In this document: positions 2,185-52,265 of the stretch, piece after piece
How the letters are laid out: every line of letters starts with the position of its first letter
Numbering within the stretch: position 1 is the stretch's first letter
Source: a virus
Taxonomy: Duplodnaviria; Heunggongvirae; Uroviricota; Caudoviricetes
Virus record (IMG/VR): IMGVR_UViG_3300021142_000006
DNA: 64,000 bases
Reading direction: 5' to 3' (one strand)
Translations under genes and position numbers: made by a program
Notes under the pieces: model-generated
What the model was told of the DNA's origin: nothing
What the model saw: the letters and a program-made list of their open reading frames with translations, nothing else
Database searches by the model: none

Positions 2185-2814
2185 CTAATCCCACCAACTT
2201 TCTATATTACGTTCTAATAGCGTAAATAAAATACGCCTTGCTTTATTGTGTAAATAATATCCCATATTCATAGCAATAGTTTGTTTGGATTTATTATCAA
2301 AGATATATTTATCTGTCTTTGTAACTTCTTTATAGGCATGTGGATACTTTTTAAAGTAATCATCATACTTTTCCCATATCTCTTCAATCCTTAATGTTGA
2401 ACAATCCTCATACAATTTCCTTTTGTCTTCAGACATTTCATCAAGTTCTTCCTTGGTCACTGGATCAAAATGAAATTTTGATTTATGATAATCCATATAT
2501 TCGCCAGTATAAAATTCATCAGATATGAGCTTCATCAATCTAACACACAACTCCATTTTTTCAGCATCACGAACATTATCAACATGTAAACCCTTTTCAC
2601 GAATGTACTTAGCTTGGAATGTTAATTTTGTCATCATTACTTGCCATATATAATGGTCATCCCAGTCCCTATCTTTCCAAATTACAGGGAACCAACGTAT
2701 AATATTTCTAATGCCTTGATATAAATCCTTATGGTAATATTTACCTTCGAACTTCCACCACAAAAATATCTTCCTGAAGATACTCAGCTTTTTTTCATTA
2801 TTGTCAAAACTCAT
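2185..2814 (-). CDS. hypothetical protein
   Basis: 209-aa Trp-rich ORF ending in TAG. Confidence 0.7.
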   Translation of the reverse strand: MSFDNNEKKLSIFRKIFLWWKFEGKYYHKDLYQGIRNIIRWFPVIWKDRDWDDHYIWQVMMTKLTFQAKYIREKGLHVDNVRDAEKMELCVRLMKLISDEFYTGEYMDYHKSKFHFDPVTKEELDEMSEDKRKLYEDCSTLRIEEIWEKYDDYFKKYPHAYKEVTKTDKYIFDNKSKQTIAMNMGYYLHNKARRILFTLLERNIESWWD

Positions 2815-3026
2815 TATAGATTAATATTTTTTTTCATAAATTCACGAATATAGTGTTGTAACCCAACTTTTTCAATTAGGGCAAGCAACTTTTCAATTTC
2901 TTCATCTTTAATTTGCAAAGATACAATAAATTCATGAATTGAATTGATAGTATCGTCAGTGATATTAAGTTGTTTTAACTTAATTTTAATAGTTTCTTTT
3001 TCCATGGTTTTGGATTTAAAAAACAA
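2814..3026 (-). CDS. hypothetical protein
   Basis: short ORF whose stop overlaps the next start. Confidence 0.5.
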   Translation of the reverse strand: MFFKSKTMEKETIKIKLKQLNITDDTINSIHEFIVSLQIKDEEIEKLLALIEKVGLQHYIREFMKKNINL

Positions 3027-3050
3027 ATATAGTAAAAAATTTTGATTAAA

Positions 3051-3464
3051 TCAACATTCAGGGTTAAATATTGTTATATTATAGGAATTTGATCTCATAT
3101 TATCTATCTTTATATTTGTGAAGAAATAATCCAGTTCATGCATAACTGTTTTCTTCATCAAAAATGTTTTTGATAGTGGTGCATCAAAAAATATATAATC
3201 CAATGACCAGCTATTATTGATAAAATCAATACCACAAACAAAATATAGTTTATCTATGAATTTGATTAATGATTTAAGTTTTTGAGTTTCAAAACCCAAA
3301 AATTCCCCATATTTGTTTTGTGTGTATTCAACTAATATATGAAATTCATATATGTTAAGAATATAATAGTTACCAGAAAATATGTTATTGAATTTATTTC
3401 TGTCAGGATTTCTACGCAAAAATTTACGCATGAAAGTCTTATTTGTTGTATTAAGGTAAATCAT
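3051..3464 (-). CDS. hypothetical protein
   Basis: 137-aa ORF coupled to its neighbour. Confidence 0.55.
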   Translation of the reverse strand: MIYLNTTNKTFMRKFLRRNPDRNKFNNIFSGNYYILNIYEFHILVEYTQNKYGEFLGFETQKLKSLIKFIDKLYFVCGIDFINNSWSLDYIFFDAPLSKTFLMKKTVMHELDYFFTNIKIDNMRSNSYNITIFNPEC

Positions 3465-13707: not shown

Positions 13708-14007
13708 TTAATCTAAGTAAGTTACAAAATCAGCTCCTTCAAATCTCTCAACACCACTTTTATCGAGTGCCCCAATATATGCTATGGGTGATGTACCCAT
13801 TTCAAGCATACAGATATTTTTATAACCATTTTCTTTTGTAATTTGAGTATTTGAATCGTCAATAATCTCATCGACTTTGGAACTAACCTTCTCAATTTTA
13901 TTTTGTCCAGGGATTACATTACCCCAAGATACGTGTGGGTCGCCGTATTCTTCAATACAGAACTTTCTACCACTTTTCATAATCACATAATATCGCCTAT
14001 TACTCAT
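13708..14007 (-). CDS. hypothetical protein
   Basis: 99-aa ORF followed by a terminator. Confidence 0.65.
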   Translation of the reverse strand: MSNRRYYVIMKSGRKFCIEEYGDPHVSWGNVIPGQNKIEKVSSKVDEIIDDSNTQITKENGYKNICMLEMGTSPIAYIGALDKSGVERFEGADFVTYLD

Positions 14008-14013
14008 ATAATG

Positions 14014-14184
14014 TTATTTTAATTCGCTAAGCTCTTTTTTCAAAGCGTTTATTTTTGATATCTGTTCTGGAAGATTAATTTCCTTAACATTAGAGACTTT
14101 TTTAATTAATGCATTATTCATCTCATCTTGAAGAAATTGTATCCTTTCTTGAAGTCTCTTTTTCTTTTTATCAATCTTACTCAT
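14014..14184 (-). CDS. small coiled-coil protein (not in the ORF track)
   Basis: MSKIDKKKKRLQERIQFLQDEMNNALIKKVSNVKEINLPEQISKINALKKELSELK read by hand; fills the gap between two ORFs. Confidence 0.55.
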   Translation of the reverse strand: MSKIDKKKKRLQERIQFLQDEMNNALIKKVSNVKEINLPEQISKINALKKELSELK

Positions 14185-14569
14185 AACGTCTTTGTTTTTT
14201 CTTATTTAATCTATTATCAAAATCCTTTATAAAAGATTCTGGTATTATTATTTTTTTATCTTTGAAGATATCAAAGATTTCGTCCCTGGTAAAACACCAA
14301 TCAGCAATCCCATCTGTCCACTGATCTAAGAATAACCCCCAAGACTTTTTTCCAATTATAATAGATCTTAATAAATTCGGATGTCTTGATTTTATTGGTC
14401 TGGTTTTAAAATAACCATCATCATATAATCTAAATCCTTCCTTACAATCAACCCCATTCGGATCATATTCAACCTGAACATCTTCACCACAAAAAGTTAG
14501 AATTCCAGTCCTGTAAGATTTTAAAAAGAAATTAAATTTCTCATTGAAACCATCCGAATATTTTCTCAA
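14177..14569 (-). CDS. hypothetical protein
   Basis: 130-aa ORF. Confidence 0.6.
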   Translation of the reverse strand: MRKYSDGFNEKFNFFLKSYRTGILTFCGEDVQVEYDPNGVDCKEGFRLYDDGYFKTRPIKSRHPNLLRSIIIGKKSWGLFLDQWTDGIADWCFTRDEIFDIFKDKKIIIPESFIKDFDNRLNKKKQRRYE

Positions 14570-14682
14570 TTTTCGTTGGTGTCTTGTTCCAATACGGTCA
14601 GAAACATCTTTTAGTCTCTGACCCTTCGTGCGACCAGCGTGGTGCCTCCATTTAAGTTTTCCATCAGTTTAAATTTTATAAG

Positions 14683-14755
14683 TGGAGCGTATGGGAGTCG
14701 AACCCATGACTCGACCTTGCAAGGGTCGTGTTATCGCCTTCTTAACCAACACCCC
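14683..14755 (-). tRNA. tRNA-Ala(UGC)
   Basis: GGGGUGU/ACGCUCC acceptor with G3.U70, loop CUUGCAA, UUCGA T-loop; CCA not encoded. Confidence 0.92.
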
Positions 14756-14763
14756 ATATTTTG

Positions 14764-14834
14764 TAGCGCATAACGGTTACGATCCGTCTTTTTGGCAGTG
14801 AAAGTGCCACGTTCTACCATTGAACTAATGCGCC
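14764..14834 (-). tRNA. tRNA-Glu(UUC), atypical T-loop
   Basis: GGCGCAU/AUGCGCU; UGGCA-CUUUCAC-UGCCA; T-loop AUCGUAA. Confidence 0.8.
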
Positions 14835-14841
14835 ATTTTAG

Positions 14842-14913
14842 TATCGATGAAGGGAATCGAACCCTCGTTTACAGATCGAAAATCTGTCGTGCTAACCGTT
14901 GCACCACACCGAC
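14842..14913 (-). tRNA. tRNA-Glu(UUC)
   Basis: GUCGGUG/CAUCGAU; ACAGA-UUUUCGA-UCUGU. Confidence 0.85.
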
Positions 14914-15126
14914 ATTATTAACATTCACATATACATGTAATTGTATAACATTCATAACATCTGTAACCATCTTTGATATTGGAAATTATAAAGTCGTTGG
15001 CATATTTATCAATCGGTAAATCTCTTTTGATTTTTTCATCAATAACTTTTTTTTCCTCATCACTTAGTTTTCTATAATCTTTTCTTTTTTTCATTTTATA
15101 GTATAAAAAGCTTCAAAAGTTCCAGG

Positions 15127-15213
15127 CGGAGAGTTGCATAATCGAAATGCACCCAAATTAATGAGCCGCTCACTTAGCAGGTGGCGACAGCGACCCTGGC
15201 TGTTTAACTCTCC
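15127..15213 (-). tRNA. tRNA-Ser(GCU)
   Basis: GGAGAGU/ACUCUCC, G73, loop CUGCUAA, long variable arm; bulged anticodon stem. Confidence 0.82.
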
Positions 15214-15221
15214 ATTTATTT

Positions 15222-15455
15222 TTACATAATCCAACGCTGCAAATACTTTGATTCCATTTCAACAAAGAAATCTGCATCGCCCATATCCTCAACTGGTATT
15301 TCAAATCTTACATCAAATGATTCGAAAGTACCATCATCAAAATGCTTATTAACATATGTGTAATAATACGCATTACCTTTCCTGATATAATCAAGTTGAG
15401 CTTTCGGATTTTGCTTATACAAAGCTTTTTTTATTTCATTCTTTTCCATAATCAT
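15222..15455 (-). CDS. hypothetical protein inside tRNA array 1
   Basis: 77-aa ORF between tRNA-Trp and tRNA-Ser. Confidence 0.6.
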   Translation of the reverse strand: MIMEKNEIKKALYKQNPKAQLDYIRKGNAYYYTYVNKHFDDGTFESFDVRFEIPVEDMGDADFFVEMESKYLQRWIM

Positions 15456-15466
15456 ATTTTTATTTG

Positions 15467-15537
15467 CACGAACAATAGGATTCGAACCTATATCTGCGGT
15501 TTTGGAGACCGATATTCTACCATTGAACTATGCTCGT
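15467..15537 (-). tRNA. tRNA-Trp(CCA)
   Basis: ACGAGCA/UGUUCGU, G73, loop CUCCAAA. Confidence 0.9.
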
Positions 15538-15674
15538 ATTTTAATTTTATTAAAGTATTGTACAATTTATCTTTAGATAAAACTTGTTTGATCTTGGATT
15601 TTTTCTTGTTCCAATCAACCAATCTAAGGATTTTTCATCCAAAATAATTTTGTTTTTCATACTTTAAAATTTAG

Positions 15675-15761
15675 CGGTAGATGAAGGAATCGAACCCTTA
15701 CCAGCTCATCACCGATAGTCACGCTTTTCAAGAGCGTTTGCTTCCATAAGCACCATCTACC
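15675..15761 (-). tRNA. tRNA-Ser(UGA)
   Basis: GGUAGAU/AUCUACC, G73, loop CUUGAAA, long variable arm. Confidence 0.9.
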
Positions 15762-15798
15762 TTATTAAAACAATATTTCAAAGAACTTCCTTTTTTTG

Positions 15799-15902
15799 TA
15801 AGTTGAAATGGACTTGAACCATTATCTCAAACCACCAGGGTTCTCAACCACCTTACATTATTTTCAAGTCATGACTCAATACTCATAATGTATAATCAAC
15901 TT
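15799..15902 (-). ncRNA. tRNA-like element with intact acceptor, D and T arms but an aberrant 104-nt body
   Basis: AAGUUGA/UCAACUU acceptor, AUAC/GUAU D stem, AAUGG-UUCAAGU-CCAUU T arm; no canonical anticodon stem. Confidence 0.6.
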
Positions 15903-15907
15903 ATTTG

Positions 15908-15982
15908 TCAGGGGTGCAGAATTCGAATCTGCGTTTCATGCTCCCAAAGCACGAGTAATTGACCTGGCTATACTAACCCCTG
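15908..15982 (-). tRNA. tRNA-Pro(UGG)
   Basis: CAGGGGU/ACCCCUG, loop UUUGGGA. Confidence 0.9.
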
Positions 15983-16040
15983 GTTTCTAATTCTATGCAA
16001 AGTAACGGACTTTCTATGAATTAGTAACAGTCTTCAACTG

Positions 16041-16125
16041 TGAGAGTGGTCAGATTCGAACTGACAAAACCGTTAAGTTCCTGTTTTACAGACAGGTGCC
16101 GACTAACCGTATCGACAACACTCCC
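16041..16125 (-). tRNA. tRNA-Tyr(GUA)
   Basis: GGGAGUG/CACUCUC, loop CUGUAAA, long variable arm. Confidence 0.92.
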
Positions 16126-16126
16126 A

Positions 16127-16160
16127 AAACAAAAAACCCTGAGATTTTATTCTCAGGGTT
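16127..16160 (-). terminator. attenuator terminator of tRNA array 1
   Basis: AACCCUGAGA/UCUCAGGGUU 10-bp stem plus U-tract about 10 nt before tRNA-Tyr. Confidence 0.88.
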
Positions 16161-16181
16161 CTTATTATCTTTTTCTTTTTT

Positions 16182-16322
16182 TTATCCTCTATCGTCAGTA
16201 TCTTTTGTTGACTTTATAGGAAAATAAAAGTAATAAGAACCCCTTCCGCTCTCATACGCTGATGACGGTTCATAACTCGGTGCCCATGATGCGGCTACTA
16301 CTGTTAATCTTGAGTTTCTCAT
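16182..16322 (-). CDS. leader peptide 1 (46 aa, MRNSRLTVVAASWAPSYEPSSAYESGRGSYYFYFPIKSTKDTDDRG)
   Basis: hand-translated; A-rich initiation region; contains the antiterminator strand 16231..16242. Confidence 0.82.
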   Translation of the reverse strand: MRNSRLTVVAASWAPSYEPSSAYESGRGSYYFYFPIKSTKDTDDRG

Positions 16323-16428
16323 TTTCTTTTAATTTTTTATAGTTTTTTTAAAAATAACCAGGATAATGTTTTTTTCTTACCAATAGAAGTTTTTAACTGC
16401 TGGAATTATCCTCTTGTTATATATAGTA

Positions 16429-16459
16429 CAAAAGTAGTAAAAATTTTTGAAAAAACAAA
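16429..16459 (-). promoter_or_regulatory. Bacteroidetes-type sigma-A promoter for leader/array 1
   Basis: TTTG-N19-TACTTTTG on the minus strand. Confidence 0.78.
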
Positions 16460-16486
16460 TGTTTTCTAATTTTTTTTTCAGATTTT

Positions 16487-16972
16487 TTATTTTTTCATAT
16501 ATTTTTTACAATGATACAATAATAATGGGTTTATATCAGGTATTTTTTTCAAAAAGTTATATTCATATTGATAACATAAGGATTCCTCTGTTTCCACAGG
16601 TAATGTTATACACATATAACGTAATCTTAAATGGTAAGATTCATGTACCAAAGCTGCGGCAACATCATTAACATCATGAGATTTCATATCATATGACGAT
16701 AGTGTTATTATACCTTTATTTGTACAAGTTCCAAAATTGGTGGAATATTTTTGATTCCAGAATGTTATCTTATCACAATATTCAAATAGATTTTTATATG
16801 AATCTTCATCAGTTTTTTCAATAAGTTCTATTGCTTTAATAACATCATAATCCCAATAATCACCAGCTTTGTCAATAACCATTTGGCCACTAACATTGAT
16901 AATACCAATAAATATAAAATATAATAATATAATAACTTTTTTCATCATATATAAATAGCCACCTCTATACAT
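16487..16972 (-). CDS. hypothetical protein with HExxH motif (putative zinc metallopeptidase)
   Basis: signal-like N-terminus; AALVHESYH...EESLCY. Confidence 0.55.
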   Translation of the reverse strand: MYRGGYLYMMKKVIILLYFIFIGIINVSGQMVIDKAGDYWDYDVIKAIELIEKTDEDSYKNLFEYCDKITFWNQKYSTNFGTCTNKGIITLSSYDMKSHDVNDVAAALVHESYHLRLRYMCITLPVETEESLCYQYEYNFLKKIPDINPLLLYHCKKYMKK

Positions 16973-17046
16973 AAAAAAATTAAAAAAGTAAATAGTTCTT
17001 TTTGAAAAACTTTTCTATTTATTTATAACAACAACAATATTCTCAT

Positions 17047-18960
17047 ATGAAAAAAATTTTAATGTCTTTACTGTTAGTTTTATTTACAGTAACATCCTAT
17101 TCTCAGGTAGTAGGTTTATCTCCAGCGCCGTCTTCAGGCATTTGGGTATTGGTGGATACGTCATATACTGTAGGTACCAATACAATGGGTTTTACCAAGG
17201 CAAGATTGAGTTTTGCCAACACAACTGGTACAAAAATTACAGGTATGCAGTTCCGTGTTTATTATGACAAGGTTGCATTCAACGGAATGAAACCAACTGT
17301 AACATCATTGTTCAGTTCATCAAACTACATGCAATATGTATCGGATTCGGTAAATGGTAACATTACGATAACAATAGCGTTCACTGGTAGTAGTCCAACA
17401 TTTACCTATCCAGCCGATTCTGTTGGTTTCGAAATAACCCTTTATCATTCTCCAGCTGCAACGTTTCAGTATTTAACCTCAATAGATAGTATGAGGGTTA
17501 CTGGTTCTTTATCATTCCAAGCTTCTGCTTCAACAGTGTATGGTAATGATACAACTTTAAATCTTTATTCTTATGGTGGTTCTTTTTACAGACCACATCT
17601 TGCATATCATGGTAGATTTGCAAATGTTACAGGTTCTGCTACCAAAAATTTAACATTAGCTCTTGAAAAGAGACCAAGAGGTTCTTCAGGCACATGGACT
17701 CCAGTTGGTGTTTATGTAACTGATACTGCTGGTAAATTTTCATTTAACGAAATTGTAGATACAACTTATTGGGATACGCATTTATATGTAAAAGGTGATT
17801 CTATGAATGTTGGTGCAACAGTTTCTGTTGCTGATGCTCAAAAAGTTAACCAATTTATTCTTGGTCAAGCAACACCTTCTGGTTTTGACTATTATACTTC
17901 TGACGTAAATGGTTCTTATACAATCTCTATTGCTGACGTTTATTCAATTTACGGTAGACTTGCAGGTAGATTTACAGCATGGCCTAATAACGTTCAAGAT
18001 GTTAAATTCTTCACAACTACTGAATATTCAACAATTAATGGTTCAACAACCAATTATACGTCTACAATTCAAGGTGTAACAAATTTAACATTCCCAATCG
18101 TTCCAGGATCAGTTGATTCTGTAACATATTATGTTCTTGGTATGGGTGATGCAAATGGTACTGGTTTTCACATGGCTCGTGTAACGCCTATCCAAATTAT
18201 CAATCCTAATAATGCATATCATTATATTATTGATGAAACTGTGGATTATGATTTCCCAACTGATAAAGTTGAGGTTAATTTACCTGAATTAACTGTTGAT
18301 GAAGGTAATCTTGTTTCAGTACCAGTTGATGTTAAAATACCTTCTGGACAAATTGGTTCTTTGCAAGTAGCATTCACTTATGATTCAACATTGCTACAAT
18401 TCAAAGGTATGGAAACAGAACAAAAATTCAATAATTGGATGTCAATTTTGAATCCAAATTCTGGTACTGTCGAATGGATTGGTTCTGACATGACAGCTAA
18501 CCAATTTTCAGCAAATGATGGTGATAAACTTTTCAGTCTTGATTTCTTGGCATTAAAACCACAAGACCAATGGGGTAAGAGCCCATTATATGTAACCAGA
18601 AAATTTTCTGGTAATCAAAATGCTACAGATCTTTCTATAAACCCAACAAATGGTATGGTTGCTGTTATGAGATTAGCACCCAATAACAATAAAATTGATA
18701 AAAATTGCGCAATAACAGTTACACCAAACCCAACATCAGGTCTTGTGTTTGTAACATTTTCAATACCACAAGATTGCACAGCAAATGTGGATTTTTATGA
18801 TTTGAGTGGTAATAAAGTTTACACAGTTTATCAAGGAACAATTTATAAAGGAAGTTATAAATATATGGCTGATTTATCATATTTAACACCTGGAACTTAT
18901 TATGGTGTGTTAAAAACCAGTACTAATGATATAACTTCAACAAAAACATTGAAACAATAA
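17047..18960 (+). CDS. secreted protein with cohesin-like domains, dockerin/EF-hand-like motif and T9SS C-terminal sorting domain
   Basis: signal peptide; DVNGSYTISIADV; VSVPVDV..GSLQVAFTYDSTLLQF; C-terminal VTPNPTSG...FYDLSGNKV...LTPGTYY. Confidence 0.75.
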   Translation: MKKILMSLLLVLFTVTSYSQVVGLSPAPSSGIWVLVDTSYTVGTNTMGFTKARLSFANTTGTKITGMQFRVYYDKVAFNGMKPTVTSLFSSSNYMQYVSDSVNGNITITIAFTGSSPTFTYPADSVGFEITLYHSPAATFQYLTSIDSMRVTGSLSFQASASTVYGNDTTLNLYSYGGSFYRPHLAYHGRFANVTGSATKNLTLALEKRPRGSSGTWTPVGVYVTDTAGKFSFNEIVDTTYWDTHLYVKGDSMNVGATVSVADAQKVNQFILGQATPSGFDYYTSDVNGSYTISIADVYSIYGRLAGRFTAWPNNVQDVKFFTTTEYSTINGSTTNYTSTIQGVTNLTFPIVPGSVDSVTYYVLGMGDANGTGFHMARVTPIQIINPNNAYHYIIDETVDYDFPTDKVEVNLPELTVDEGNLVSVPVDVKIPSGQIGSLQVAFTYDSTLLQFKGMETEQKFNNWMSILNPNSGTVEWIGSDMTANQFSANDGDKLFSLDFLALKPQDQWGKSPLYVTRKFSGNQNATDLSINPTNGMVAVMRLAPNNNKIDKNCAITVTPNPTSGLVFVTFSIPQDCTANVDFYDLSGNKVYTVYQGTIYKGSYKYMADLSYLTPGTYYGVLKTSTNDITSTKTLKQ

Positions 18961-26330: not shown

Positions 26331-26356
26331 AAGTTTGTGTAGTATTAATAACTACA

Positions 26357-26387
26357 CAAAAGTAATAAAAGTTTTTAAATAAACAAA
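26357..26387 (-). promoter_or_regulatory. Bacteroidetes-type promoter upstream of tRNA-Cys
   Basis: TTTG-N19-TACTTTTG. Confidence 0.7.
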
Positions 26388-26678
26388 TTATTGTTCAACT
26401 TTTCTTTTATTTTTTTGTTTTGCTTTCCAACCACGCTCAACACGAGCTTTATCCCTACGTTTTTTCCATCTTCTATCAAACCAATAAGAACCAAGCTCAT
26501 TGCTTATTTCTTTATCTAATTGAACTATTTTATCAAATAGTTCAATCTTTTGAGCATCAGTCAAAGGTGTTGGTTTATTTCTCCATTTATCCCTGTTTTT
26601 CATTGGGGTTGGATTAAGTAATCTGTGTACAGCATTACTGAATTTAGATTTGATCATTTCTGTTTTAGAGTTTTTCAT
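26388..26678 (-). CDS. basic hypothetical protein
   Basis: 96-aa Lys/Arg-rich ORF. Confidence 0.6.
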   Translation of the reverse strand: MKNSKTEMIKSKFSNAVHRLLNPTPMKNRDKWRNKPTPLTDAQKIELFDKIVQLDKEISNELGSYWFDRRWKKRRDKARVERGWKAKQKNKRKVEQ

Positions 26679-36526: not shown

Positions 36527-36600
36527 TGACTATGGAAAGATTCGAACTTTCAACCCCTCCGTCCGTAGCGGAGTGCGCTAATCCGTTGCGCCACATAGCC
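36527..36600 (-). tRNA. tRNA-Arg(ACG)
   Basis: GGCUAUG/CAUAGUC, loop CUACGGA. Confidence 0.92.
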
Positions 36601-36758: not shown

Positions 36759-36971
36759 TTTAAAATATTTTATGCTTTTATATAAATATGTTCTTTTTTT
36801 AAAAAAAATCGGAATAATGTTTTTTTCTTATTTAGCAAGGTTTAAATGCTGAAATTATTCCCTTTATAAAATACGGATTGCTTTTTTTTGACGTTTTAAA
36901 TTGGAAGTTTAAATTGGAAGTTTAAATTGATAAAAATTTGCTGTAGGCAATCCCATTATTTCAATATAGTA

Positions 36972-47366: not shown

Positions 47367-47398
47367 CAAAAGTATGAAGTTATTTTCAAACTTCCAAA
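47367..47398 (-). promoter_or_regulatory. Bacteroidetes-type promoter inside array 3
   Basis: TTTG-N20-TACTTTTG. Confidence 0.68.
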
Positions 47399-47521: not shown

Positions 47522-47595
47522 TGTGACAGGTCGGTTTCGATCCGACTACCCCTTCGCTCACAACGAAGCGCTCTCCCAATTGAGCTACAGTCACC
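47522..47595 (-). tRNA. tRNA-His(GUG)
   Basis: encoded G-1; CUUCG-UUGUGAG-CGAAG; T-loop AUCGAAA; A73. Confidence 0.83.
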
Positions 47596-47854: not shown

Positions 47855-48310
47855 TTAGTGTTTTTTAACGATTTTATCGGCTGCATGTGTAGCTGCCCAA
47901 GCGTGTGGTTTACCTGCTGCTTCATAACCCATTGATTTTGCGTAACCGATACCAGCATCATATAACTCATGTGATTTTTCGTTAGGGTTTGAGTTATAGT
48001 CAACGTGTATCGTAATTTTTCTATCAATACCTTTTAAGGTATCAGCAACAATAACTGACTTATTAACTTCTTCCCATAACCTCATATAGTTATTAGGTTT
48101 CATTGATTCAGTTTCTTTTTTGTTGATGATGTGACCACCTTTACCTGGTTCATACATACACACACTAACAGCGTAATCAATTTTCTTGTCACGTGTTTGT
48201 GAATCACAACCAATATAGATTTCCGCATTTGGTTTGTCAGAAATCCAGTTTTCTACATACTCTTTAAGGTTATGGATAACCATACCTTGTCTTGTTCTGA
48301 ACTTAGCCAT
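47855..48310 (-). CDS. RNase H-fold protein (YkuK/DUF458-like)
   Basis: IYIGCDSQ...RLWEEV...IHVDYNS..KSH..GY....GKPHAWAATHAAD. Confidence 0.82.
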   Translation of the reverse strand: MAKFRTRQGMVIHNLKEYVENWISDKPNAEIYIGCDSQTRDKKIDYAVSVCMYEPGKGGHIINKKETESMKPNNYMRLWEEVNKSVIVADTLKGIDRKITIHVDYNSNPNEKSHELYDAGIGYAKSMGYEAAGKPHAWAATHAADKIVKKH

Positions 48311-48499: not shown

Positions 48500-50095
48500 T
48501 CATATATCAAAGGTCGTAAAACCGATTTGATTATTTTTATCTTTTACAAAAGATATATGTTGTGCTCTACCATTTTTATGTATGATTACATGTGACTGTA
48601 ACCATGAGCTTGGGCCTGAGTTATAACCCATTCTCAATTTGGTTGATGTACCGACAGCTAATGCACCATCTTTTCTTCCTGGTGAATGATAGTGGCCTAC
48701 AACAATTTTTGTATTCAATGTTCTGTATTGATTAAGAGAGCCTCTTGAACCATTTGTACCTTGGTCACCATGTTGCCCAAGTTCCCATCCATTAACTTTA
48801 TATGATTGATTTCTTCCGAGTGTTACGTATTTAGGATATTTTGAGTTAATTATTTCAGGTATTACACCTTTGATTTTATACATATCCTTTTCATATTGTT
48901 CCATGAGCATTTGTGAATACTTCATGTATAGTTTTGAATTCTTGGTTGTTGGTTGTTTTTTCCAATCTTCATTCTTTAACCATCTATCAAGAAAATCATC
49001 ATGATTACTTCTAACAATAACAACATTTTTAAATTTTTCAAATGTTGCAAGATTGAGCATCATTTCATCTATTTCTTTTTCAAGGGAATTCTTACCATGT
49101 ATTTCTTTTGCGTATTGTACAAAAGGATCTTTCATTTCATGATGATTAATTGATGTGCCGTCAAAAACATCATGCAGAATTACATGTTCTGGTGTAACTT
49201 TATCAAGTAACTCCATTGTTTTATTTATAACATCATTGTCATGATTTCCGTAATGCATATCACCAAAAACGATTGCGGACATTTCATTTATTTTGGTAAT
49301 GTTTCCAGAATCAACTTTATAGCATAAATCTTGGAAGGAACCAGATTTATCATCTGCTGTAACTTGTCTTACATAAAATGTTTCATCATCTTTTATTTCA
49401 ACAATAACGAATCCATATGTGTGATGAAATTCACCTTTTTTACCTGATTTAGAATCAGTATAATTCATTAGTGTTACCGAACCAGTTGTAACCATCATCT
49501 TTGGTTTACAACCTTCAAGTACAGGTATCATTTCTAATTGTACCTTTGGTGCACCAAATACACATGAATTGACACCACTTACACCTTGCATACCACTCAT
49601 AGGGTTTGTGGCTGTGGGTTGTATTTTAATGTCAGACATAATAGTTATATACTTGTGTATAGAGTGTCTACCAGCATCTAAATATGGTAACACATCATCA
49701 TGCCATGTATCATAGTCTTTATCAGTAAATACCGATGTTGGATTTTTATATCTACCAGCAATAACGTGGATATCAGCATCAATATATTCAGCATATGCTT
49801 TCATGTTGTTGAAAAACTTACTATGTACAGGTGTATCGTTTTGTGCCCATGTTATTAAAAATCTTTTCTTGGTTTTATCATGAACCCTTTGTTTTGCGGT
49901 TTCATATTGTTCAGATTCTACTTCAACTTTTTCTTTAAATCCCAATTTTTCTGAGCACCATTTTCTAACAGTCCTTTCCGATTTACCAAAAAGATCCATT
50001 AATAGTTTCATTCTTTCATCCCAACTTAATTCAGTATTCCAGTATATATTTCTGGCTTTTTCAATTTGTTCTGGCGTTACATCTTTAAACTTCAT
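48500..50095 (-). CDS. HTH + calcineurin-like metallophosphoesterase
   Basis: GKSERTVRKW; FGDMH, LHDVFDG, VRSNHD, GQHGD, VGHYHSP. Confidence 0.78.
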   Translation of the reverse strand: MKFKDVTPEQIEKARNIYWNTELSWDERMKLLMDLFGKSERTVRKWCSEKLGFKEKVEVESEQYETAKQRVHDKTKKRFLITWAQNDTPVHSKFFNNMKAYAEYIDADIHVIAGRYKNPTSVFTDKDYDTWHDDVLPYLDAGRHSIHKYITIMSDIKIQPTATNPMSGMQGVSGVNSCVFGAPKVQLEMIPVLEGCKPKMMVTTGSVTLMNYTDSKSGKKGEFHHTYGFVIVEIKDDETFYVRQVTADDKSGSFQDLCYKVDSGNITKINEMSAIVFGDMHYGNHDNDVINKTMELLDKVTPEHVILHDVFDGTSINHHEMKDPFVQYAKEIHGKNSLEKEIDEMMLNLATFEKFKNVVIVRSNHDDFLDRWLKNEDWKKQPTTKNSKLYMKYSQMLMEQYEKDMYKIKGVIPEIINSKYPKYVTLGRNQSYKVNGWELGQHGDQGTNGSRGSLNQYRTLNTKIVVGHYHSPGRKDGALAVGTSTKLRMGYNSGPSSWLQSHVIIHKNGRAQHISFVKDKNNQIGFTTFDI

Positions 50096-51083: not shown

Positions 51084-52265
51084 TTAGGAAACAACTCTTC
51101 TTACTTTACCATCAAGGAATGATTTGTAGTTAGGGCCTCTAAGTATCAAGATTTCATTACCCTCACGTTTAAATCTAAAGATACCAGCAGCTTCAGCTGA
51201 GTCCAATAACGTCTGTAGATAACCTTGTTTATGTTTCAAGTTATTCTGTTCAAAGAAATCGTCAAGGATTGGTTTTTGCGCTGTGTTAATAAATGATATA
51301 AGATCTAATATGATCTTATTCTTATTAGGGGAACTGAATGAATATGCGTATGTTGGGTTATCACTTCTCCAAAACACAAATTTGAATTCGAATGGTTCCA
51401 ATAATATAACCTTTGTATCAATATATTTCTTCAATAGGTTGAAGAATGTTTTTCTGAAGAATTTCTCAGCAATAAACTCATTTGTTGGAATTCGATATAT
51501 TTCAAAAAAGGTTGTTAAAATAACTTTATTATCCTTTTTAACAAATATTTCAATTTTATTAGTATCGTTAGGGAATAGTAATGTTTCTATTTTCAAATTA
51601 GTAGCATCTTTATTTTCCCAAACAATAAATAATTTACCCTTTGGTTCTGGTTTTTTTACAGGTTTCCAATTTTCCGCATCTGTTCTTAAAGTATATTTAA
51701 GAAATTTAGTGTCAAATGTTGTTTTCAAAACCAAGTCCACCTTTTTTGGGTTTTGGGTTTTCTTTGGTTTATTTGCATTCAATTTTGGTAGATTCTGTAA
51801 TTGTTGTTTCTGCGGCTCTTTACCTAAAGGAACATTCGAAGCCATGTTTTTAACCGCTGGATTTACATTACCAGGGTTAGTTTGTTGTGTTGGAGCTGGT
51901 TGAGGATTTTGTTGTGGTGTAGCCAACTCTTCATCAAGCTCTTTGAATAAATCTTCTTCAATATCTCTCTTGTTTTTTTTAATCGGAACTTTTAATTGAT
52001 ACCCATCATAAAGATCAGATGATTCAAGAAATAAATTATTATAATCAACATCATAACCATTTTCCTCAAGGATGATATCAATATCATTATCAATCAAATC
52101 AGAAATATATTCTGAAACATTACCTCTTATACTGTTAATCGGTAATACTTCAACATAATATTCCCTATTGTTTTCATTAATAAAGGAAATATTATCAGAT
52201 TTGGTTACACCTTCTGACAACATTTTAGTTATTACATTATTTCTTAATATATCTGATTTTTTCAC
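51084..52265 (-). CDS. hypothetical protein
   Basis: 393-aa ORF with a Gln/Pro linker. Confidence 0.65.
   Translation of the reverse strand: MKKSDILRNNVITKMLSEGVTKSDNISFINENNREYYVEVLPINSIRGNVSEYISDLIDNDIDIILEENGYDVDYNNLFLESSDLYDGYQLKVPIKKNKRDIEEDLFKELDEELATPQQNPQPAPTQQTNPGNVNPAVKNMASNVPLGKEPQKQQLQNLPKLNANKPKKTQNPKKVDLVLKTTFDTKFLKYTLRTDAENWKPVKKPEPKGKLFIVWENKDATNLKIETLLFPNDTNKIEIFVKKDNKVILTTFFEIYRIPTNEFIAEKFFRKTFFNLLKKYIDTKVILLEPFEFKFVFWRSDNPTYAYSFSSPNKNKIILDLISFINTAQKPILDDFFEQNNLKHKQGYLQTLLDSAEAAGIFRFKREGNEILILRGPNYKSFLDGKVRRVVS

Follow-up and report, generated by a model that had tools for sequence, protein, structure and literature searches.

In this study, we performed a sequence analysis of a 64,000-nt stretch of phage DNA (hereafter the window), and the results suggested that a short open reading frame (ORF) upstream of one of its tRNA operons, leader 1, probably works as a ribosome-mediated (leader-peptide) transcription attenuator that controls the operon and places tRNA supply under negative feedback. 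The parts that an attenuator would be predicted to show at the sequence level were found: an ORF with its own start and stop codons after a promoter, a cluster of codons cognate to the downstream tRNAs, an intrinsic terminator before the first tRNA gene, and an antiterminator overlapping that terminator. The original prediction had already read the region in this way, and comparison with other modules supported the reading, as leaders matched their own arrays (z = 14.3), paired with their own terminators (z = −9.6), and were rewritten in relatives to match the arrays found there.

The Window and tRNA Array 1

The window is AT-rich (31.6% GC) and phage-like, with tail-fibre and DNA-transfer protein families, and many metagenomes from freshwater and lakes, dated 2012 to 2018, contain the stretch. 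ARAGORN identified about 30 tRNA genes in the window, all on the minus strand. The array probably regulated by leader 1, array 1 (14682..16125, minus strand; ARAGORN and Rfam), comprises nine tRNA genes with small ORFs interspersed, in the order Tyr-GUA, Pro-UGG, an odd tRNA-like element, Ser-UGA, Trp-CCA, Ser-GCU (weak), two copies of Glu-UUC, and Ala-UGC. The Tyr, Pro, Ser-UGA, Trp, both Glu and the Ala genes were detected by both ARAGORN and Rfam. The tRNA-Ser(GCU) gene (15213..15125) is non-canonical, with a perfect acceptor stem, a good T arm and a weak D arm; it was found by ARAGORN at a relaxed threshold only, and Rfam gave no match for it. The tRNA-like element (15798-15870, minus strand) has a six-base anticodon loop and was called Pro or Thr by ARAGORN, again at the relaxed threshold only. 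No Pfam family was detected in the small proteins neighbouring array 1, and the genes downstream of leader 1 consist of the nine tRNA genes and small ORFs without a Pfam family, with no biosynthesis or synthetase gene among them.

Organization of the Leader 1 Module

On the minus strand, the module is arranged as promoter, ORF, terminator and tRNA-Tyr. The promoter read from the sequence (16429..16459, minus strand) is of the Bacteroidota type, with a −33 element TTTG at 16459..16456, a 19-nt spacer and a −7 element TACTTTTG at 16436..16429. The pattern TTTG-N17-22-TAnnTTTG occurred 22 times in the window against 6.4 expected, and near-identical promoter sequence heads other tRNA arrays (26357, 35929, 47790). 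No copy of the pattern was found between the leader 1 terminator and tRNA-Tyr or inside array 1.

Between the promoter and the ORF, RNA folding revealed a 5′-UTR hairpin followed by a U-run (16350..16412, minus strand), whose stem pairs GGATAAT at 16411..16405 with ATTATCC at 16367..16361. Leader 2 has kept this hairpin in its 5′ UTR, where the stem has gained an A:T pair by a compensatory insertion. In arrays 1 and 3, the interval from promoter to leader ORF contains a conserved element about 70 nt long, at 16350-16412 and 36790-36870, and another copy lies near 36880-36960 (all minus strand). Its AT-rich stem, GGATAAT/ATTATCC in array 1 and GGAATAAT/ATTATTCC in array 3, encloses a loop of roughly 40 nt, and a U-run and an A-run follow; the element might act as a pause site, stabilise the 5′ end or be a second, weak terminator.

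The leader 1 ORF (16182..16322, minus strand) has 46 codons plus TAA and encodes MRNSRLTVVAASWAPSYEPSSAYESGRGSYYFYFPIKSTKDTDDRG. It begins at an ATG at 16322, ends with TAA at 16184..16182, and has an in-frame stop codon 9 nt upstream of the ATG. Codons 10-25 (16248..16295, minus strand), read from the sequence, form the putative regulatory run, AASWAPSYEPSSAYES. The upstream strand of the antiterminator lies inside the ORF (16225..16243, minus strand) and starts 4 nt past the end of the run; its core (16242..16231), an exact 12-bp complement, starts 5 nt past. The downstream strand, placed by folding at 16156..16173 (minus strand), overlaps the 5′ arm of the intrinsic terminator that a terminator scan located at 16126..16163 (minus strand). 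This terminator has a 13-bp stem (16163..16151 with 16144..16132), the loop ATAAAA and a U-tract, UUUUUUGUUUU, reaching to 16126, and tRNA-Tyr starts at 16125, directly abutting it. The structural features noticed originally were all recovered on reading the minus strand. The run at 16295..16248 has the listed codons GCC GCA TCA TGG GCA CCG AGT TAT GAA CCG TCA TCA GCG TAT GAG AGC; GGGUUCUUAUUA (16242..16231) and UAAUAAGAACCC (16167..16156) are exactly complementary and are paired with each other in the whole-leader fold; and the second of these segments overlaps the terminator 5′ arm (stem 16163..16132 in the terminator scan).

Correspondence Between the Codon Run and the tRNAs of Array 1

The run was proposed to cover the amino acids of array 1 and nothing else. 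At the level of amino acids this was correct, since only the six occur; at the level of decoding the match is slightly less complete, because GCC is not readable by tRNA-Ala(UGC) under plain wobble, and one of the serine isoacceptors, Ser-GCU, was weakly detected. Under plain wobble, the anticodons of array 1 can read 15 of the 16 codons, GCC being the exception. The 16-codon run of {A,E,P,S,W,Y} is the longest in the six frames of the window, followed by runs of 13 and 11. The six amino acids had been assumed to make up about 30% of codons, and this share was too high, the six-frame count being 22% here. The chance of such a run is very low, as had been stated, but the figure is about 3e-11 per site at 22% and not 0.3^16.

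Codon choice within the run followed the array down to the isoacceptor. Serine is encoded by TCA three times and by AGT and AGC once each, in keeping with the isoacceptors UGA and GCU. For Pro, CCG is used both times, a codon that accounts for just 4% of the phage's Pro codons, and the run is free of GCT, TCT and CCT, which provide 51, 29 and 32% of the Ala, Ser and Pro codons, respectively, in long ORFs. In its choice of codons, leader 1 follows the anticodons and not the usage seen in the phage's own genes. Each amino acid occurs one to five times in the run, and sensitivity to any single tRNA may therefore be low.

Strain Variation and Transcript Evidence

A second strain variant over 16167..16317, found in DNA run X8, differed at six positions, five of which are third positions of the leader frame (p about 0.018 for at least five of six, binomial estimate by hand). 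This bias fits selection on the reading frame. The three changes inside the run, TCA to TCG, CCG to CCA and GCG to GCA, are synonymous A/G swaps still readable by the same U34 tRNAs.

Metatranscriptome contigs of two studies (15941..16150 and 15980..16150, no mismatches) joined the 3′ half of the terminator, the U-tract, tRNA-Tyr and tRNA-Pro. They span the U-tract into tRNA-Tyr, so some transcripts cross the terminator, on weak evidence at a depth of about 3. These shallow contigs, at the same depth of about 3, included none over the leader 1 ORF. The depth of X20 over 16173..16506 was considered as leader coverage and rejected, as it came from short matches of a contig otherwise not fitting the stretch. 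The RNA contigs of the two studies share the exact end 16150, which is the first base of the terminator loop; as a weak hint, this end may mark a processing site or a hairpin artefact in library preparation.

Folding of the Terminator and the Antiterminator

The antiterminator duplex of leader 1 had a folding energy of −13.3 kcal/mol, compared with a mean of −7.7 kcal/mol for shuffled sequences, and the terminator hairpin alone ranged from −15.2 to −18.0 kcal/mol. Nascent RNA (16250..16151) folded into an extended antiterminator of −26.0 kcal/mol before the terminator 3′ arm exists. With a ribosome mask on the antiterminator strand (region 2) or on the stop region, the terminator fold was obtained. 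A mask at codon 17 also gave the terminator as the minimum-energy structure of the equilibrium fold. In equilibrium folding, the completed RNA favoured the terminator in 11 of 13 modules, and for complete leader 1, with both arms present, the equilibrium was ambiguous or terminator-favoured; if there is a switch, it has to be kinetic, like that of classical attenuators. Equilibrium folds with ribosome masks separated the states poorly, because long-range pairs that are spurious, together with the stronger terminator, prevail in the completed RNA, and for this reason we relied on the nascent-RNA fold and on a pairing test across modules. Folding showed no clear anti-antiterminator (1:2) or pause hairpin in leader 1, where the run forms weak local hairpins only.

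In 8 of 12 leaders, the strand just past the run end (starting up to 12 nt after it) paired with the terminator 5′ arm at z ≤ −2.8 relative to shuffles; the complementarity was weak in the other four. The distance from the stop codon to the terminator 5′ arm was constant at 20-28 nt across modules (about 20 nt to the stem in leader 1). As a control that holds composition constant, every leader was paired with every module's terminator arm. The sum over own leader-arm pairs was −295 kcal/mol, against −190 ± 11 kcal/mol for permuted pairs (z = −9.6, 0 of 100000 permutations), and leader 1 ranked its own arm first (−14.5 kcal/mol, with a mean of −8.5 over the arms of 25 other modules).

Other tRNA Arrays in the Window

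The same layout was found at two more arrays of the window, with IIRLQQLQLLILR and IKNIGMTFGRVNDHTDRGF. One leader, MKNVNNIIRLQQLQLLILRDGASIVKTFS, lies upstream of tRNA-Arg(ACG) at 36600, which heads an Arg/Leu/Leu/Gln/Ile/Leu array, and its run is the longest of its kind in the window. The other, MKSQIKNIGMTFGRVNDHTDRGFLCDY, lies upstream of tRNA-His at 47594 and includes the codons ATA GGA ATG ACG TTT GGC AGA GTG AAT GAT CAC; the codons of this leader match the tRNAs from 47594 down to about 42400, including GGA and GGC for two Gly isoacceptors. In both, the terminator abuts the first tRNA, and a G-rich segment inside the leader is complementary to the terminator 5′ arm. A promoter-like site between tRNA-His and tRNA-Phe of this largest array (47367-47398, minus strand) implies that part of the array may escape leader 3.

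The arrays headed by Cys plus a CUA suppressor (26330), Leu-UAA (35886) and Arg-UCU (43029) lack a leader and directly follow a promoter. In the arrays carrying Cys and the amber-reading CUA tRNA, the promoter comes without leader ORF or terminator both in the window (26331-26390, minus strand) and in a relative (L008, minus strand, 1780-1945); the recoding CUA tRNA seems to stand outside the attenuation scheme.

Leaders and Arrays in Related Phages

A blastn search of leader 1 DNA against the GenBank phage collection gave no match, and the upstream 161-aa protein had no relatives in IMG/VR. The 130-aa protein encoded directly downstream of array 1 did have relatives in IMG/VR, which carry different tRNA sets at the syntenic place. 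CheckV estimated a related contig of 159 kb to be only 22% complete, which suggests very large genomes in this phage group.

In these relatives the leaders changed together with the arrays. Locus L003 has the array Tyr, Glu, Glu, Gly-UCC, Gly-GCC, Ala and the leader MTNLNNILTTAAYEGAYGYEGKHSEVGKLCS with the run AAYEGAYGYEG (GGA, then GGC and GGT), and L001 has the array Phe, Phe, three Glu, two Asp, Cys and a weak Ala, and the leader MKTFNNIFDFAFEFAAEADKSLGRSSIVKS with the run FDFAFEFAAEAD. In other arrays of these contigs the match again extends to isoacceptors: L005 has ACC/ACG for Thr-GGU/Thr-UGU, GTT/GTG for Val-GAC/Val-UAC, ATT/ATC for Ile-GAU and ATA for Ile-UAU, and in L006 the codons TCT TCT AGT CGC AGT AGT precede Ser-GCU, Arg-ACG and Ser-GGA.

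A search of IMG/VR with the leader 1 DNA pattern returned one ortholog, in contig G004, and none further. This ortholog, MRNTNRVTVAASWAASYAYPTPEELVTGFLFLF, stands ahead of Tyr/Pro/Ser/Trp/Trp/Ser/Glu, and its own pair of complementary strands, ACGGGGTTTTT and AAAAACCCCAG, has co-varied with the terminator arm. Between its terminator and tRNA-Tyr, the opposite strand carries an inserted HNH endonuclease gene (L010, reverse strand, 2440-3110), giving a gap of about 700 nt between leader and array. The ortholog keeps five Ala codons and one Thr codon (L002, 2655-4000; L010, reverse strand, 2273-2375); no Ala or Thr tRNA was found in the array downstream of it, where a kinase-like gene follows tRNA-Glu.

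The correspondence was evaluated statistically in two sets. In the hand-curated set, the own array was the best fit for 11 of 12 leaders (0 of 100000 permutations). A scan of metagenome contigs provided 50 more loci. The automated pipeline used default ARAGORN, terminators with a tRNA at most 130 nt after them, and ATG ORFs ending 8-60 nt before the stem, and in scoring the best frame was taken equally for own and foreign arrays. It yielded 29 non-identical modules, namely leader 1, the two other window arrays and 26 in related phage contigs. The own array ranked first in 19 of these 29, and the summed own-array score was 160.8, against 52.5 ± 7.6 for permuted assignments (z = 14.3, 0 of 200000); leader 1 itself scored 10.3 with its own array and at most 3.4 with any other. 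Peptide conservation among leaders was confined to the N-terminus and the run. TAG was absent from the 14 leader stop codons read, which were all TAA or TGA.

Proposed Mechanism and Alternative Explanations

We propose the following mechanism for leader 1. Transcription would start at the promoter (16459..16429), and the 46-codon leader would be translated next. When a cognate charged tRNA is scarce, its codon would be read slowly and the ribosome would lag inside the run, leaving 16243..16225 free to pair with 16173..16156. This antiterminator would occupy most of the terminator 5′ arm, and RNA polymerase would read into tRNA-Tyr and the rest of the array. With fast decoding, the ribosome would cover the antiterminator strand and move on to the stop codon, which lies about 20 nt ahead of the terminator stem; a ribosome at this position would keep the upstream RNA off the 5′ arm, allowing the terminator to form and preventing transcription of the array. 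The sensed quantity would be the decoding rate, set by the abundance and charging of the cognate tRNAs, and the outcome would be a supply of these tRNAs held at the level that translation needs during infection. That the position of the ribosome selects between antiterminator and terminator, and that slow decoding leads to read-through, are the steps we infer, the latter from geometry; a response of making more tRNA would be sensible if tRNA abundance is limiting during infection.

The same parts might serve another signal or the other polarity, with read-through needing active translation (feed-forward), or with host amino-acid starvation and tRNA charging being sensed instead of abundance. 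Sequence alone cannot fix polarity, the equilibrium folds were ambiguous for some ribosome positions, and a stall at the last one to three codons of the run would cover the antiterminator strand, which begins only 4 nt beyond it; moreover, charging and abundance both affect the rate of decoding, as in trp and his attenuation. We nevertheless regard this explanation as unlikely. In all modules the stop codon precedes the terminator arm by a distance that puts a terminating ribosome too far from the hairpin to block it, which argues against the opposite polarity, and an antiterminator strand in the ORF downstream of the run is the classical geometry in which a stall gives read-through. Besides, the RNA without a ribosome folded into the antiterminator, and in the starvation version extra tRNA would not relieve the shortage of amino acids.

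It is less probable still that the mini-ORF represents a genuine small gene, or acts as a translated stability or processing element, beside a terminator that is a leaky insulator of the upstream unit, with no ribosome switch involved. Intrinsic terminators are often leaky, the third-position bias shows frame constraint alone, and RNA contigs of two studies start at 16150 within the terminator loop, where the transcript could be processed, which gives this explanation weak support. It leaves unexplained, however, why leader composition tracks the own array across 29 modules, why the codons match at the level of isoacceptors, and why a segment of the ORF is complementary to its own terminator arm; the peptides, moreover, are unconserved beyond the N-terminus and the run, and Pfam was blank for the neighbouring small proteins. 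As for a chance ORF in a GC-enriched structured spacer with a coincidental codon match, the frame and strand were picked after the sequence had been seen, and the weak sub-threshold Rfam matches suggest a generic hairpin-rich leader. We consider it scarcely credible given a run that is the longest in the window at a chance of about 3e-11 per site. Furthermore, the match was replicated in independent modules with other amino-acid sets, at loci that are not assembly copies of each other and whose arrays and leaders differ, and coincidence is contradicted by the permutation tests.

Comparison With Known Systems

The attenuator proposed for leader 1 resembles the enterobacterial leaders trpL, hisL, pheL, leuL, thrL and ilvGMEDA in its promoter, its short ORF with a cluster of regulatory codons, and its downstream antiterminator strand that rivals an intrinsic terminator, as well as in the position of the stop codon, at which a ribosome completing the ORF favours the terminator. 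With the thr and ilv leaders it also shares multivalency, several amino acids being sensed. The enterobacterial leaders, however, regulate biosynthetic enzymes, whereas leader 1 would regulate tRNAs, so that the sensed molecule is the product too. They contain tandem repeats of one codon, whereas leader 1 covers six amino acids (leader 3 up to 11), each one to five times. In contrast to them, the phage leaders have codons matched to the anticodons of isoacceptors and belong to a phage element with a Bacteroidota-type promoter, and leader 1 showed neither a 1:2 anti-antiterminator nor a pause hairpin. Hosts with promoters of this type mostly lack Shine-Dalgarno-led initiation. Rfam scores did not indicate family membership: His_leader (RF00514) reached 21.4 bits against a cut-off of 49 and PyrG_leader (RF02371) 22.3 against 65, and the other sub-threshold matches at leader 1 were microRNA hairpins, likewise not membership.

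T-box riboswitches also monitor tRNA status and decide between terminator and antiterminator. A T-box, found at synthetase and amino-acid genes of Firmicutes, binds one uncharged tRNA directly, by means of a specifier codon and the T-box motif and with no translation involved, whereas leader 1 has a 16-codon run for six amino acids. Rfam gave no match to the T-box family (RF00230) in 14000..17200 at E values up to 10.

A comparable layout was seen in the Caulobacter phage phiCbK (JX100813), where annotated rho-independent terminators lie just before tRNA blocks. In the GenBank annotation (L013), terminators stand before three such blocks, at 48120-48166, 49745-49769 and 51465-51502. An ORF beginning MSKTYRQFVRQIQVVRNI precedes Phe/Val/Ile/Ile/Val/Gln/Gln, and gp083, annotated with 45 aa and rich in S, L, P and K, precedes Pro/Pro/Lys/Lys/three Leu/two Ser. 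phiCbK differs in belonging to an unrelated lineage with an unrelated host and no sequence similarity, and its match is looser in two of the three blocks. The E. coli tRNA-Phe genes were considered as a possible precedent for an attenuator-like tRNA leader and rejected: the copy downstream of yqgA, presumably pheV, is preceded by a promoter and only about 100 nt, and it lacks a leader ORF.

Biological Significance

A full-text literature search found no account of leader-peptide control of tRNA genes, the phiCbK layout included, and to our knowledge feedback control of tRNA supply is undescribed for any tRNA gene. The usual accounts of why phages carry tRNA genes are compensation for codon usage, or making up for host tRNAs lost to degradation or cleavage in infection. 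If the attenuator reading of leader 1 is true, the phage gauges decoding speed codon by codon and makes the matching tRNAs, and leader-peptide attenuation would be extended to RNA genes, to phages and to hosts with Bacteroidota-type promoters. In practice, the leader peptide would allow the genes of its operon to be predicted, even non-canonical tRNAs overlooked by gene finders.

The recurrence of the layout in unrelated lineages, the large freshwater phages of the Bacteroidota type and the Caulobacter phage phiCbK, would make it a general way of regulating tRNA genes; the parallel elements of phiCbK are in a phage cultured on Caulobacter vibrioides. We lean towards the view that phages run a codon-resolved homeostat of tRNA supply, in which a translated "test strip" for each operon lists the operon's own isoacceptors and only the limiting tRNAs are topped up, and that this is a general, undescribed and repeatedly arisen mode of control. 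If so, phages would be able to top up their tRNAs, for example after the loss of host tRNAs or under a mismatch in codon usage.
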